NCBI GenBank assembly: GCA_033720715.1
Contig: JAWWBZ010000001.1
Location: forward strand, 1 to 62,632
Source: Nitrosopumilaceae archaeon
GTDB lineage: Archaea > Thermoproteota > Nitrososphaeria > Nitrososphaerales > Nitrosopumilaceae
DNA: 62,632 nt
Reading direction: 5' to 3'
Shown here: piece after piece, positions 32,953-38,278 of the stretch
How positions within the stretch are numbered: the first letter of the stretch is position 1
Layout: each line of letters opens with the position of its first letter
Program-made: the position numbers and the translations under genes
Notes under the pieces: generated by a model
What the model was told of the DNA's origin: nothing
Databases searched by the model: none
Seen by the model: only the letters and a program-made list of their open reading frames with translations

Positions 32953-33321
32953 GTGCTATCAGAAATGGATCATCAACAATTATGTGAAAAAGTAATAGAA
33001 CTACTACCGCAAGTCAGGTTCAGCGGAATCTTAAATTCAAGAGGAGATTTAGCGGTTGAAAAAAATAGAGAGGATTCAGAAAAATTACTTAAACCCGATG
33101 AAGTGAAAATGTCAGTTCATTACACTTTTCAAAGATGGACAAGTATTCAAAACCTATCTCATAGAATTGGAAACGAAAAAACGAACATTTCGGAATTTGA
33201 TAAAGTTACTTTGATTAGTATATTACTTCCAGACAAAAATCTTCTTTTGATAAGTTCTGAACCAGGAGCAAACTACATGGAAATTATTTCTAAAGTTAAA
33301 CAAATAATTCCAGAAGAATAG
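32953..33321 (+). CDS. hypothetical protein (possibly Roadblock/LC7-like fold)
   Basis: 122-aa ORF from GTG. The alpha-beta-beta pattern (RFSGILNSRGDLAVEK ... VTLISILLPDKNLLLISSEPGANYMEI) resembles Roadblock domains. Weak. Confidence 0.45.
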   Translation: MLSEMDHQQLCEKVIELLPQVRFSGILNSRGDLAVEKNREDSEKLLKPDEVKMSVHYTFQRWTSIQNLSHRIGNEKTNISEFDKVTLISILLPDKNLLLISSEPGANYMEIISKVKQIIPEE

Positions 33322-33844: not shown

Positions 33845-33962
33845 TCACTAAAATTTCTTGGTCCTAATTTTTGAGGTTTTTCATAAAATCATAGGTAATT
33901 CTCATAATTTTTTTCCGGGAAATTAGATAGTATAATAAATAACCATATTTTTGATTTTTTAT

Positions 33963-34544
33963 ATGAAGAAAATAGAGGCGATTATTAAAAGATCTAGCTA
34001 TACAGAAATTGCGGACAAGCTAAATGAATTAGGTTATACAATTATTGATAAGCGAAATCTTGAGGATAGTAAAATTTTTGATAAACAAAACAGTTCTAAA
34101 GTTGGGGGAACCATAGGTGTAAAGACCATTCCTTTATCGAAGATCGAGTTAGTTGTCGCTGAAAAAGATGCAAGGAAAGTAATTGAATTAATTTCAAAGA
34201 AATCTGGTTTTACCTCAAGTAAGGTCGGAAAAATTTTTGTCTCTGAAATGGATGAAGTCTTGGAAATTAATACTCTGGAAAGTACTCAAGACTTAGAATT
34301 AGATGAACCCAAATTTCCACCAAAACCCAAAATTAAACGAAGTCGATTGGTACCACTTCAAAAATATACCCTCCTTCGACTACAAACAGTCTATGAAGAA
34401 AATTATGACACTTTAGTATCTGATCATAGGATTAAATCATTTAGTGATTTTGTTAATCACTGTATCATGGGATACCTACCATCTTTTGAAAAACAGCTAA
34501 AACATCCAACAGTTGTATATGGAAATAATTTTAGAGAGTTTTAG
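33963..34544 (+). CDS. PII-like domain protein with a ~90-aa C-terminal extension (possible ribbon-helix-helix)
   Basis: MKKIEAIIK start at ATG 33963 (track start is TTG 33951). PII-like beta-alpha-beta layout ending KVGKIFVSEMDEVLEI, then KRSRLVPLQKYTLLRLQTVYEEN...SFSDFVNHCIMGYL. Confidence 0.65.
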   Translation: MKKIEAIIKRSSYTEIADKLNELGYTIIDKRNLEDSKIFDKQNSSKVGGTIGVKTIPLSKIELVVAEKDARKVIELISKKSGFTSSKVGKIFVSEMDEVLEINTLESTQDLELDEPKFPPKPKIKRSRLVPLQKYTLLRLQTVYEENYDTLVSDHRIKSFSDFVNHCIMGYLPSFEKQLKHPTVVYGNNFREF

Positions 34545-34870
34545 ATAGTACTTTCTCCTTCGTCACCTGAAGCAATATCTACTGCTCTTAAAATTGGTGA
34601 TACAAAGATTTTTCCAACGCTTCCTTTGTCTTTAATGATGTTTATCACTTGTTCTTCTTTACTTTCTGGAATTACTAATTCAATGACATACTTTTGGCTA
34701 AACTGAGGCTGAAATATTGCACTTCCTTTAGAAGCATGGATTTCAGGAGGAGGTCTTTTCCCACGTCCTCTGACTTTACTTACAGTCAACCCTCCAATCT
34801 CAAGTTCCTTTAAAGCCTCGCTAATGTTCATTACGTCATTATTTCCGAGAAATGCTTGGATCTTAATCAT
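34541..34870 (-). CDS. glnK: PII nitrogen regulatory protein (GlnK-like), divergent from amt
   Basis: 109-aa ORF. MIKIQAFL..., T-loop-like RGRGKRPPPEIHASKGSAIFQPQF, B-loop GSVGKIFVSPI. Confidence 0.8.
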   Translation of the reverse strand: MIKIQAFLGNNDVMNISEALKELEIGGLTVSKVRGRGKRPPPEIHASKGSAIFQPQFSQKYVIELVIPESKEEQVINIIKDKGSVGKIFVSPILRAVDIASGDEGESTI

Positions 34871-34913
34871 TTAATGGATCGGAGAGGTTTTTCACAAATA
34901 ATAGTTTCAGATT

Positions 34914-34935
34914 TTGATTATCAAGTGATAATCAA
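34914..34935. promoter_or_regulatory. perfect 22-bp palindrome TTGATTATCA-AG-TGATAATCAA between divergent glnK-like and amt (candidate operator)
   Basis: Read directly. 10-bp arms, 2-bp spacer. A further TTATCAA copy at 34940-34946. AT-rich TATA-like TATTATTATTTA lies downstream toward the amt TTG start at 34989. Confidence 0.45.
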
Positions 34936-34988
34936 ATAGTTATCAAATTTCGTTATTATTATTTAGTTTCAAAATTTTCACAATAGCG

Positions 34989-36308
34989 TTGCCAATAGAT
35001 ACAGGTGATACAGCGTGGATGCTCGTAGCAGGAAGTTTAGTATTGTTAATGATACCTGCTTTGGGACTTTTTGAATCAGGGCTACTAAGAAAGAAAAATG
35101 CCGTATCTGTATTTATGCAAATTTTCTTTGGTTTAGCCTTACTTTCTGTAATGTGGTTTGTTTTTGGATTTAGCCTCGCATTTGGTCCAGATGAGACAGG
35201 TGGTTTGATGGGAAACCTGGATTGGGTGTTCCTAAAGGGAGTCCCTTGGGATGAAGCGCTAGACTATGCACCTACTATTCCAGGTGTATTATTTGTGAAA
35301 TTCCAATTGATGTTCGCAGCAATTACTCCACTTCTTTTGACGGGAACTATTGCAGAACGTATGAAATTTAGCTCATTTATTATATTTATTGCAACATGGT
35401 CGATCCTGATCTACTATCCACTAGTACATTGGGTCTGGGGAGGAGGCTGGTTAGCAGAATTAGGAGTTGTGGATTTTGCAGGAGGAATCGTAATACACAC
35501 AAGTGTAGGTATGGGAGCACTTGCTGCTGCCATAGTATTAGGGCGAAGAAGATTCTTTGGTCCAGCAATTGAAATTCCACATAGTATTCCTCTTGCTGTA
35601 GTAGGTTCATCTTTACTTTGGTTAGGATGGTTCGGATTTAATGCAGGAAGTGCTCTTGCATCAGGTTCATTAGCTGGAAATACCGTAATTGTAACTCATA
35701 TGGCGTCATCTGTTTCTGCATTAATCTGGGTAGGATTATCATGGATGAGATCTGGTAAACCTTCAGTCGTTGCTGCTGTCAACGGGGCAATTGCAGGGTT
35801 AGCAGGAATTACTCCAGCATCAGGATTTGTAAGTGTTGAACATTCATTTGTAATTGGCATAGCTATTGGTATTGCTTCATACTCTACATTGGTAATTTTC
35901 AAAGAAAAACTAAAGATAGACGACGCATTAGACGTAAGTTCTGTCCACGGAACTGCCGGTATTATAGGTTCGCTTGCAATTGGTATATTTGCAAGTACTG
36001 CAATTAATCCTGCAGGTCCAAACGGTTTACTATTTGGAAATCCAGATCAATTGGGAATTCAAGCGATTGGCGTAGGAGTTGCAGGTGCCTTAGGATTTGG
36101 TGGAACCTTCATAATTATGAAAGTCATTAACTTCCTTGTAGGGGTTCGAGTGTCGCCAGAAGTGGAGGATGCTGGACTAGACATAAGTGAACATGCAGAA
36201 CGGGCGTACGCAGATGAAGAAGAATTTAAACTTGAAATGGATGAATATGTAGAAGATCTTGAGAGAAAAGGTGGATTCTTCGGTGGACGGAAGAAAGATA
36301 ACAACTAA
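34989..36308 (+). CDS. amt: ammonium transporter, Amt family
   Basis: 439-aa ORF from TTG. DTGDTAWMLVAGSLVLLMIPALGLFESG, VDFAGGIVIHTSVG and FGFNAGS signatures, 11 TM pattern. Confidence 0.95.
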   Translation: MPIDTGDTAWMLVAGSLVLLMIPALGLFESGLLRKKNAVSVFMQIFFGLALLSVMWFVFGFSLAFGPDETGGLMGNLDWVFLKGVPWDEALDYAPTIPGVLFVKFQLMFAAITPLLLTGTIAERMKFSSFIIFIATWSILIYYPLVHWVWGGGWLAELGVVDFAGGIVIHTSVGMGALAAAIVLGRRRFFGPAIEIPHSIPLAVVGSSLLWLGWFGFNAGSALASGSLAGNTVIVTHMASSVSALIWVGLSWMRSGKPSVVAAVNGAIAGLAGITPASGFVSVEHSFVIGIAIGIASYSTLVIFKEKLKIDDALDVSSVHGTAGIIGSLAIGIFASTAINPAGPNGLLFGNPDQLGIQAIGVGVAGALGFGGTFIIMKVINFLVGVRVSPEVEDAGLDISEHAERAYADEEEFKLEMDEYVEDLERKGGFFGGRKKDNN

Positions 36309-36902: not shown

Positions 36903-37181
36903 ATGCATGCGCAAGTAGTAAGTTCAGAACCAAAAGAACTCAATATTTCCATTAAGGATACCGATATAGGAATATTGTATATTATCCAACATGAACTTTT
37001 AAAGAATTCAAAAATTGACTTTGCAGGCGTTATTGTAAAACACCCACTTACTAATGAATGCTGGATGAGAGTAAATTCAAATGGAAAACCACTTCAAGAA
37101 ATTAAAAACGCAACTCAAACTGCAGAAAAAACTGCTGAAGAACTTAAAAAATTATTCAATTCAACATTAAAGGGAAATTAA
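36903..37181 (+). CDS. rpoL: DNA-directed RNA polymerase subunit L (Rpb11 homologue)
   Basis: 92-aa ORF. DIGILYIIQHELLKNSKIDFAGVIVKHPL matches the RpoL/Rpb11 dimerisation-domain pattern. Confidence 0.8.
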   Translation: MHAQVVSSEPKELNISIKDTDIGILYIIQHELLKNSKIDFAGVIVKHPLTNECWMRVNSNGKPLQEIKNATQTAEKTAEELKKLFNSTLKGN

Positions 37182-37496
37182 ATGAAATTTTGCCCCAAAT
37201 GTGAGGTCAAATTAAAAAAAGACGGGTCTGACTTCAAATGTTCTAAATGTGGTTATGTAGAAGGTGGAGCATCTTCTCAACCAAAAAAAACTGTTCAAGA
37301 AGAATCAACAGAAGCATTCAATGTTTTTGCAGAAAATGAAGGAGAGGAAGCATTACCAACTATAGAAATTGAGTGTGAAAACTGTGGAAATAACGAAGCT
37401 GTTTGGTGGATGTTACAAACTAGAAGTGCGGATGAACCAACAACACAATTTTACAGATGTACAAAATGTAAAAACACTTGGCGTAATTACGCATAA
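37182..37496 (+). CDS. tfs: transcription factor S (TFIIS-like cleavage factor / RpoM-like)
   Basis: 104-aa ORF. N-terminal Zn ribbon CPKC...CSKC. C-terminal TFIIS ribbon CENCG...QTRSADEPTTQFYRCTKC. Confidence 0.85.
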   Translation: MKFCPKCEVKLKKDGSDFKCSKCGYVEGGASSQPKKTVQEESTEAFNVFAENEGEEALPTIEIECENCGNNEAVWWMLQTRSADEPTTQFYRCTKCKNTWRNYA

Positions 37497-37531
37497 CGTT
37501 TAACTTGAACTTATAGCACCTGAAAATCAGT

Positions 37532-38278
37532 TTGACTTTTAGCGCAAAAACTAGTGGGTCTGATGATCTTAAAGCAATTATTTCAGCTATTTCCACACTT
37601 GTAGAAGAAGCAACTTTTGTTGCATCTTCAGAAGGGATCACATTTAGAGGGATGGATCCATCTCATGTTGCTTTAATCGATATTTCATGGCCAAACTCAG
37701 CTTTTGAAAAATACGAATGTGACAGTGATATTAAATTTGGGGTGAGAATTGATGAGTTCTCTAAACTAATCAAAAGAGCAGAAAAAAAAGATAGTATTGA
37801 AATTAGCATATCAGAACAAAATTTACTCCTTGTAACTATTGGAAAAAATAAAAAATACAAAATGCGACTTATTGAAAGCTCTGCTACTGATACGCCTTTA
37901 CCAAAGATTCCTTATAATTCTAAAATTACATTATCTTCCTCCTTGTTTGACAGAATTTTGGGGGATGTCCAAGTTGTCTCAGATTACCTTACCATGCATA
38001 CATCTGATTCTAACGCAGATTTTTCAGGAAAGGGAGATTCAGGAGAAGTTGTCATTGACCTAGAAAAAGAATCTGAGGAAATTGCAGAGATTACATCAAC
38101 GGAAGACAGCACAGGAACTTATAGCCTCGAATATCTTAATCCTGTAGTCAAAGCTGTAGGCTCAACTGCAGGAAACGTAACATGTGAATTTTCAACGGCT
38201 AAACCTCTTAGAATAGAATTCAAAGTTGCAAATATTGGAAGAATCCACTTTTATCTGGCGCCAAGAGTAGAAAGTTAA
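37532..38278 (+). CDS. pcn: DNA polymerase sliding clamp (PCNA)
   Basis: 248-aa ORF from TTG with two-domain PCNA pattern (LVEEATFVASSEGITFRGMDPSHVALIDI...). Confidence 0.85.
   Translation: MTFSAKTSGSDDLKAIISAISTLVEEATFVASSEGITFRGMDPSHVALIDISWPNSAFEKYECDSDIKFGVRIDEFSKLIKRAEKKDSIEISISEQNLLLVTIGKNKKYKMRLIESSATDTPLPKIPYNSKITLSSSLFDRILGDVQVVSDYLTMHTSDSNADFSGKGDSGEVVIDLEKESEEIAEITSTEDSTGTYSLEYLNPVVKAVGSTAGNVTCEFSTAKPLRIEFKVANIGRIHFYLAPRVES

Follow-up and report, generated by a model that had tools for sequence, protein, structure and literature searches.

PII proteins of the GlnB/GlnK type (Pfam P-II, PF00543) are among the most widespread signalling proteins, and their canonical members contact MgATP, ADP and 2-oxoglutarate through G27–T29, G35–Q39, K58, G84/G87/D88/G89/K90, R101 and R103 (E. 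coli numbering). Nitrogen or carbon status is coupled to nitrogen-assimilation transcription by the PII–PipX–NtcA, GlnK–AmtR and GlnK–TnrA systems and by the archaeal 2-oxoglutarate-sensing repressor NrpR. A single-chain arrangement is found in NikR, in which a DNA-binding domain of the ribbon-helix-helix (RHH) type is fused to an ACT-like ferredoxin-fold metal sensor and the operator is palindromic. Here, we describe a gene, termed PII-ext, whose product joins a PII domain to a lineage-specific domain at the C terminus (C-domain). It is located at 33963..34544 (plus strand) of a 62,632-nucleotide stretch (the window), which comprises positions 1 to 62,632 of contig JAWWBZ010000001.1 from a Nitrosopumilaceae archaeon (assembly GCA_033720715.1). 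Its neighbours encode a GlnK-like PII protein and an ammonium transporter (Amt), and the promoter region between these two genes carries an array of three palindromes. Whether PII-ext is a one-component regulator of amt and the glnK-like gene, with a PII sensor covalently linked to a DNA-binding module, appears to us evenly balanced.

PII-ext shares with canonical GlnB/GlnK and with archaeal GlnK–Amt pairs the fold and Pfam family (residues 1–104), the residues K58, G89 and K90, and the proximity to amt. In contrast to the canonical proteins, it has about 90 extra C-terminal residues, a pocket with the signature IIDKRNLED and no Tyr51-type modification motif; unlike in archaeal GlnK–Amt pairs, the gene divergently paired with amt is a 109-aa paralogue and not PII-ext itself. 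Whereas the PII partner systems use separate polypeptides, and NrpR a non-PII sensor, PII-ext combines a sensor and a putative DNA-binding module in one chain. This recalls NikR, in which a small oligomeric sensor of beta-alpha-beta-beta-alpha-beta layout is likewise linked covalently to a small module for DNA binding (a candidate module in PII-ext). However, the domain order is reversed, the sensor is a PII domain (presumably a trimer, as in the PII family) rather than a tetrameric ACT domain, and the N-domain of NikR belongs to RHH_1, to which the C-domain has no match. Furthermore, the NikR operator consists of two half-sites 16 bp apart, in contrast to the three units with 11-bp phasing found here.

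Since every characterised PII protein acts via protein–protein contacts, as stated in PMC4285133, a DNA-binding module of its own would, if true, add a new output mode to this family. Ammonia-oxidising archaea (AOA) control marine and soil nitrification and dominate global nitrification. Our literature search found nothing that explains how AOA regulate ammonium uptake against ammonium oxidation, and no paper on a C-terminal PII extension or a TGATWATCA motif in AOA. The locus provides a concrete candidate regulator–operator pair at the Amt gene of these organisms. The PII part of the protein belongs to a known family; the C-domain family and the three-unit array, neither of which is present in Pfam, NCBIfam or PHROGs, are new and conserved, even if the C-domain binds no DNA.

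A PII protein with a conserved C-terminal domain

The open reading frame (ORF) of PII-ext is unbroken from the ATG at 33963 to the TAG at 34542–34544 and encodes 193 aa plus the stop codon. A TTG at 33951 would add four residues; as the orthologues all start with MKKIE, the start was placed at 33963. Residues 1–104 (33963..34274, plus strand) form a ferredoxin-like PII domain of the GlnB/GlnK type whose effector pocket is non-canonical. They match PF00543 with 42.7 bits (gathering cutoff 25) over profile positions 1–100 of 102, and solved PII proteins match among the PDB sequences down to E = 5e-8; the NCBIfam GlnB/GlnK equivalogs match far below their own cutoffs. In an AlphaFold2 (AF2) monomer model built on 24 orthologues, the N-domain adopts the order beta-alpha-beta-beta-alpha-beta (E-H-E-E-H-E) with predicted local distance difference test (pLDDT) values of 76–88 outside the T-loop, and Foldseek assigns it to GlnK, GlnB and GlnZ with probability 1.00 (198 matches at E <= 1e-3). 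The first-pass annotation of this DNA had proposed a PII fold for the first ~105 residues, a B-loop-like segment and a continuation of ~90 residues, all of which stand; of the B-loop, the GKIF part is present. Its description of the T-loop as long and divergent is correct only for the divergence: the loop is the second least conserved segment of the protein (0.55 identity) but of canonical length, with 1–2 gap positions only relative to E. coli GlnB/GlnK.

A full-length search of 5.8 billion proteins yielded 1346 homologues. The best 120 of these 1346 come from Nitrosopumilaceae, measure 171–194 aa, are 70–100% identical to PII-ext end to end and contain no Pfam domain other than PF00543. In their source records, these 120 are labelled 'nitrogen regulatory protein P-II', 'P-II family nitrogen regulator' or simply 'transcriptional regulator'. 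An exhaustive search of 1.84 billion representatives with the C-terminal 87 residues alone found the C-domain in 12 clusters only. Every full-length member has a PII-like N-domain, and the remaining members are fragments or mis-started gene calls; thus, in current data the C-domain has neither an independent existence nor another fusion partner. A frameshift or annotation artefact, which the first-pass annotation had named as a possible pitfall, is ruled out because full-length orthologues are abundant and the linker between the two domains varies in length without loss of frame.

This linker (residues 105–122; 34275..34328, plus strand) is acidic and proline-rich, with an isoelectric point (pI) of 4.1 for residues 105–120. 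It is predicted to be disordered (pLDDT < 50 for residues 98–130), varies in length and sequence, and has the lowest mean pairwise identity of the protein (0.44); its length differs in the divergent homologues P0124, P0127 and P0130. It is followed by the candidate DNA-binding module (residues 123–180; 34329..34502, plus strand), which consists of a basic arm, KIKRSRLVPLQK, and a three-helix domain. The arm is invariant (K-x-K-R-S-R-L-V-P-L-Q-K) with a pI of 12 for KIKRSRLV; the pI of the C-domain is 9.6. According to AF2, the helices span residues 131–146, 148–155 and 160–180, and KRSRLV is a coil. A model of the C-domain alone reached a mean pLDDT of 81.5, with 86–96 over construct residues 11–60 (protein residues 129–178). 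Conservation peaks in the basic arm (KIKRSRLV) and again where the turn leads into the last helix (RIKSFSDFVN). The stretch of residues 156–180 is the most conserved of the whole protein (0.86 identity), and the segment R-I-K-S-F-S-D-F-V-N-x-C begins the last helix. By analogy, these peaks suggest DNA contact, since they fall where an RHH or an arm-plus-helix-turn-helix (HTH) domain would touch DNA.

Invariant gene order and a palindrome array in the glnK-amt spacer

The GlnK-like PII gene (34541-34870, minus strand; 109 aa, Pfam P-II 49.2 bits) is convergent with PII-ext, with which it overlaps by 4 nt as annotated before, and divergent from amt (34989-36308, plus strand; 439 aa, start codon TTG, PF00909 E = 3e-112, TIGR00836 408.8 bits). 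We compared 80 species-level genome loci that encode the C-domain, from Nitrosopumilus, Nitrosarchaeum, Nitrosotenuis and 'Nitrosomaritimum', the last being closest to the window (99% identity in the C-domain). Every one of the 80 loci that extends far enough preserves the order PII-ext(+) / GlnK-like(-) / Amt(+), whereas the outer flanks vary by genus. The same gene order, with a second Amt in addition, is found for the distant homologue P0130, whose C-domain is 46% identical. Conservation of both the fusion and its synteny with amt, a check proposed in the first-pass annotation, is therefore confirmed. PII homologues beside the low-affinity Amt1 have been reported for group 1.1a AOA (PMC4836417), and the Amt of the window is probably this Amt1. 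PII repertoires differ among AOA (PMC7490402). Two loci, L031 (JAGXRG010000008.1) and L053 (JAJFHZ010000014.1), are labelled as Chitinophagaceae and Amylibacter metagenome-assembled genomes (MAGs) and carry the thaumarchaeal PII-ext/GlnK-like/Amt cluster with 66–93% identity; these labels are probably due to binning contamination in public records.

The bidirectional glnK-like/amt promoter region (34871..34988) comprises 118 nt, and nearly all loci keep it at 115–118 nt. A perfect 11+2+11 palindrome, TTTGATTATCA-AG-TGATAATCAAA, lies in it at 34913-34936, 369 bp downstream of PII-ext; the first-pass annotation had noticed this palindrome, which proves to be part of a larger conserved element. 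This element (34915..34945) is an array of three units of the 9-bp palindrome TGATWATCA with 11-bp phasing: unit 1 at 34915-34923 (TGATTATCA), unit 2 at 34926-34934 (TGATAATCA) and the degenerate unit 3 at 34937-34945 (TAGTTATCA). The 62.6-kb window holds only two exact copies of TGATWATCA, which are adjacent and both located in this spacer. Across 601 kb of loci, 113 of the 140 exact copies fall in the glnK-amt spacer, corresponding to a density of 12.1/kb compared with 0.046/kb elsewhere (~265-fold enrichment), and unit pairs phased at 11 or 22 bp all lie in this spacer or near a PII-ext gene.

In 73 loci, the mean number of mismatches to TGATWATCA is 0.1 at the central unit, 1.2 at offset -11 and 2.0 at offset +11, but 7.1 and 6.7 at offsets -22 and +22; off-phase controls gave 4.8–6.6. 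The array thus has exactly three in-phase units. In the same loci, the central unit lies 59–60 nt from the GlnK-like start codon and 57–59 nt from the Amt start codon. A conserved A/T-rich block on either side is a putative promoter element by its position: ACAAAT.ATA.TTTC (plus-strand letters; 34894..34908) as the TATA box and transcription factor B recognition element (BRE) of the GlnK-like gene on the minus strand, and tATt.TTATT.A (34954..34965, plus strand) as the amt TATA box. The former has columns conserved in at least 90% of 74 loci. Each block lies ~29 nt before its start codon (ATG and TTG, respectively), and the array would therefore occupy the space between the BRE/TATA regions of a symmetric bidirectional promoter.

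The spacer of one Nitrosopumilus MAG (L063, 4838-4956) contains 11 perfect tandem copies of the 11-bp unit TTGATAATCAT, an expansion that lengthens it from ~117 to 203 nt. TGATAATCA resembles the central part of the Fur box of E. coli; this was judged coincidental, as the array period is 11 bp and not 6 bp.

The motif and the PII-ext gene in divergent lineages

Deeply divergent homologues on short metagenomic contigs have the motif beside PII-ext irrespective of the neighbouring genes. In five divergent lineages, the sequence within 700 bp of the gene holds 5 exact motifs compared with 0.17 expected (P < 1/2000). In L085 (P0131), no amt or glnK is nearby, the PII domain lacks a T-loop, and two exact units 22 bp apart lie between PII-ext and the next gene, which encodes a dCache chemoreceptor. 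L082 (P0127), with a GC content of 26%, has three units 11 bp apart just downstream of the gene. L083 (P0130), arranged as PII-ext / PII / Amt / Amt, carries three phased units with one mismatch each and one exact unit upstream of the second Amt, in addition to degenerate phased units in the PII-Amt spacer and a unit with one mismatch 17 nt ahead of the PII-ext ATG. In L081 (P0124), where a small ORF precedes PII-ext, one exact unit lies amid motif-like 11-bp repeats upstream of the gene pair. These findings suggest that the motif travels with the PII-ext gene and not with amt, and they make the TGATWATCA array, which co-occurs with the gene across lineages, a candidate operator.

In 38 of 82 loci, a single motif-like unit with at most one mismatch also precedes the PII-ext ATG by no more than 130 nt, nearly always at -45 to -52, which hints at autoregulation; the window has no such unit at this position.

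The gene surroundings of two of the divergent homologues include signalling genes. In L083 (1127-3662), PII-ext is adjacent to genes for a dCache-PAS histidine kinase, a response regulator and a guanylate-cyclase-like protein. In L085 (1-2347 and 4617-6740), it is flanked by genes for methyl-accepting chemotaxis protein (MCP) chemoreceptors and CheW, and the TGATWATCA pair of this locus is upstream of the dCache MCP gene.

A remodelled effector pocket

For the comparison of the pocket, the N-domain was aligned to E. coli GlnB and GlnK. Only K58, G89 and K90 of the ~15 canonical contact residues are kept in PII-ext. The canonical G27-M28-T29 is replaced by I-I-D, G35-F36-G37-R38-Q39 by D-S-K-I-F, G84, G87 and D88 by T, K and V, and R101 and R103 by E and N. 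The replacements are themselves invariant across the PII-ext family (IIDKRNLED), and the pocket therefore appears remodelled yet under selection. As most of the canonical contacts are replaced, ATP/2-oxoglutarate sensing cannot be assumed; the ATP, ADP and 2-oxoglutarate responses considered in the first-pass annotation are doubtful, and the conserved substitutions suggest a signal other than ATP/2-oxoglutarate.

Proposed function and alternative explanations

We propose the following hypothetical mechanism, in which (i) each PII subunit carries, on a flexible acidic linker, a small domain of three helices preceded by a basic arm; (ii) this C-domain would bind DNA, with the three TGATWATCA palindromes 11 bp apart as its target; (iii) either one trimer could span the three sites, or two trimers could provide three dimers; (iv) binding of a metabolite to the remodelled clefts of the PII domain would alter the engagement of the three C-domains with the array; and (v) transcription of the Amt and GlnK-like genes would thereby be set jointly. 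The location of the array between, and just upstream of, both TATA/BRE elements would fit activation as well as occlusion. In its most specific form, this proposal would make PII-ext the first member of the PII family to act itself as a sequence-specific DNA-binding transcription factor. Such a protein would use a novel or unrecognisably divergent fold, read the three in-phase palindromes of the symmetric amt/glnK promoter of AOA as a three-fold oligomer and respond to a non-canonical effector. We hold this specific form to be possible, though somewhat doubtful. The one-component reading is nevertheless the best available explanation: the conserved basic arm and the association of the array with the gene point to DNA binding by some fold, although this support is comparative-genomic and does not come from a recognised DNA-binding fold. 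The PII fold, the fusion, its synteny and the array with its link to the gene are established, while DNA binding, stoichiometry, ligand and direction of regulation are inferences. What the first-pass annotation had offered for it, namely a PII domain in a conserved fusion with a link to glnK-like and amt genes, is borne out, but the RHH fold it had assigned to the extension is not.

Several points weigh against a DNA-binding PII-ext, among them that no profile or structure search recognised a DNA-binding fold in the C-domain. Scans of 13 diverse C-domain members against Pfam, NCBIfam and PHROGs at E <= 10 returned no RHH or HTH family, the best sub-threshold noise being DUF1599 (0.01) and RepB_C (0.011), and a profile search of PDB sequences with the C-domain gave nothing below E = 0.3. 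Foldseek of the C-domain-only model against PDB produced two matches only, both to ParB of pCXC100 (E ~8–10, probability 0.06), and against BFVD two matches, both with E > 4. ParB of pCXC100 is an RHH protein that, according to PMC3074162, lacks detectable sequence homology to known DNA-binding motifs. The first-pass annotation had seen a strand/helix/helix pattern in the extension, for which AF2 instead predicts coil and three helices; the connection between the first and last of these, at the position of the RHH A–B turn, is an 8-residue helix without Gly and not a short G-x-S/T/N turn. When this middle helix was deleted in silico to mimic a canonical RHH domain, a renewed Pfam scan again gave no RHH match.

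Profile–profile comparison by hhalign of the C-domain alignment with six RHH alignments (real Arc, ParG, RHH_1, ParD, RelB and Omega family proteins) yielded probabilities of 0.2–3.5%. However, in a control with the same set-up, true RHH-versus-RHH pairs scored 0.1–49%, with 8 of 15 at or below 3.5%; the test thus has little power, because it misses about half of the true RHH pairs. A hand-built RHH mini-profile gave 0.1%. The best local match aligned helix 3 (KSFSDFVNHCIMGYL) with helix B of ParG (KSFSDFVNHCIMGYLPSF versus TSITDVVNQLVDNWLKEN, P = 0.013), which is not a significant profile match, and helix 1 matched helix A of Arc with P = 0.12. RHH repressors that act on tandem in-phase sites (Arc, MetJ, CopG, omega, ParG and ParB of pCXC100) resemble PII-ext in having a basic N-terminal segment followed by helices and an operator of short palindromes one helical turn apart. 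They differ from it in that PII-ext has the extra 8-residue helix, an arm without a clear alternating strand pattern and no significant profile or structural match. By eye, the arm may correspond to the strand of an RHH domain, helix 1 to its helix A and helix 3 to its helix B, with one helix inserted. The helix lengths would fit a homeodomain-like arm with a tri-helical HTH equally well, a reading that is also suggested by an F-x-N in helix 3 and by the TAAT core of the motif. Both models serve as leads; we do not claim the homeodomain/HTH reading.

Further objections concern symmetry and the motif. To our knowledge, there is no precedent for a three-fold-symmetric sensor acting on palindromic, two-fold sites. 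In locus L088, only one motif copy is present, and it lies outside the PII-amt spacer. In Nitrosotenuis, the array reads TTGTATAACAA, repeated two to three times, and in the protein the arm has gone from KRSRLVPLQK to NRNRLVSLQK and the beginning of helix 3 from SFSD to SFND; this co-variation of protein and operator speaks for the proposal but represents a single lineage event. Moreover, the association of motif and gene is equally expected if the motif is bound by another factor, to whose regulon PII-ext merely belongs.

The last point leads to the alternative that PII-ext is an adaptor whose C-domain docks onto a separate transcription factor, analogous to PII–PipX–NtcA or GlnK–AmtR/TnrA. 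That factor would read the TGATWATCA array, and the motif would mark its regulon. We consider this rather unlikely, although it would agree with the protein–protein contacts by which every characterised PII protein signals (PMC4285133), with the failure to detect a DNA-binding fold in the C-domain, and with the motif-like unit upstream of PII-ext in 38 of 82 loci, which fits PII-ext as a regulated target as well. However, no candidate transcription factor gene is conserved in the neighbourhood, where only PII-ext, GlnK-like, Amt and sometimes a 122-aa ORF (orf122) recur. Nucleic-acid contact is the better match for the invariant basic arm and for a C-domain with a pI of 9.6, and in L085 the C-domain and the motif persist despite a degenerate PII part.

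Alternatively, PII-ext might act on Amt as a second regulator at the post-translational level, either by itself or in trimers mixed with the GlnK-like 109-aa protein, with the C-domain as an anchor to the cytoplasmic face of the transporter, the membrane or another enzyme and with an unrelated array. The invariant adjacency to amt and the GlnK-like gene would be consistent with such a role, as would the GlnK–AmtB pairing, which is given as the ancestral PII function in PMC3831643. We nevertheless regard it as improbable: the adjacent 109-aa PII already fills the role of GlnK, the PII-ext T-loop is poorly conserved, the C-domain is not obviously hydrophobic or amphipathic, and L085 retains C-domain and motif with no amt nearby. 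Finally, a C-domain that serves as an intramolecular or oligomerisation element, folding onto the PII effector clefts or joining trimers with no target of its own, is very improbable, for although C-terminal extensions that modulate PII exist (the Q-loop of plant PII, the R-loop of SbtB) and the canonical effector residues of PII-ext are remodelled, the known extensions are short (< 25 residues), whereas a disordered, poorly conserved and length-variable linker that sets off a separately folding domain of ~60 residues is the design of a tethered effector.

Further features of the loci

The GlnK-like 109-aa protein is also non-canonical. Its B-loop is five residues shorter, the equivalents of K58, R101 and R103 are gone and the T-loop is Arg/Pro-rich (RGRGKRPPPE); unlike PII-ext, it has kept the GGLT motif. 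In L033 (4207-4457), the GlnK-like gene is followed on the minus strand by a pair of small hydrophobic ORFs of 30 and 53 aa, with similar pairs in other Nitrosopumilus loci and in L088. They occupy a gap of ~230 nt and are not present in the window, where PII-ext and the GlnK-like gene overlap.

In the window, orf122 corresponds to a 122-aa ORF at 32953-33321 (plus strand) with a weak match to DUF6659 (E = 0.12). In most Nitrosopumilus loci, a homologue (37–45% identity) lies directly 3' of Amt, which makes it the fourth recurring neighbour of the PII-ext/GlnK-like/Amt cluster. Genes for an RNA polymerase Rpb11/L-like subunit, a TFS/TFIIS zinc-ribbon protein and PCNA lie downstream of the cluster in the window (36903-38278), and genes for a radical-SAM protein and a DSP-type phosphatase upstream of it; both flanks are kept in the closest genera only. 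In addition, a 16-nt element, GAGGTTTTTCAYAAA, occurs twice in the window, upstream of PII-ext (33872-33887) and ahead of the GlnK-like gene, where it falls between the putative TATA box and the start codon ATG (34883-34898), in opposite orientation relative to the two genes.

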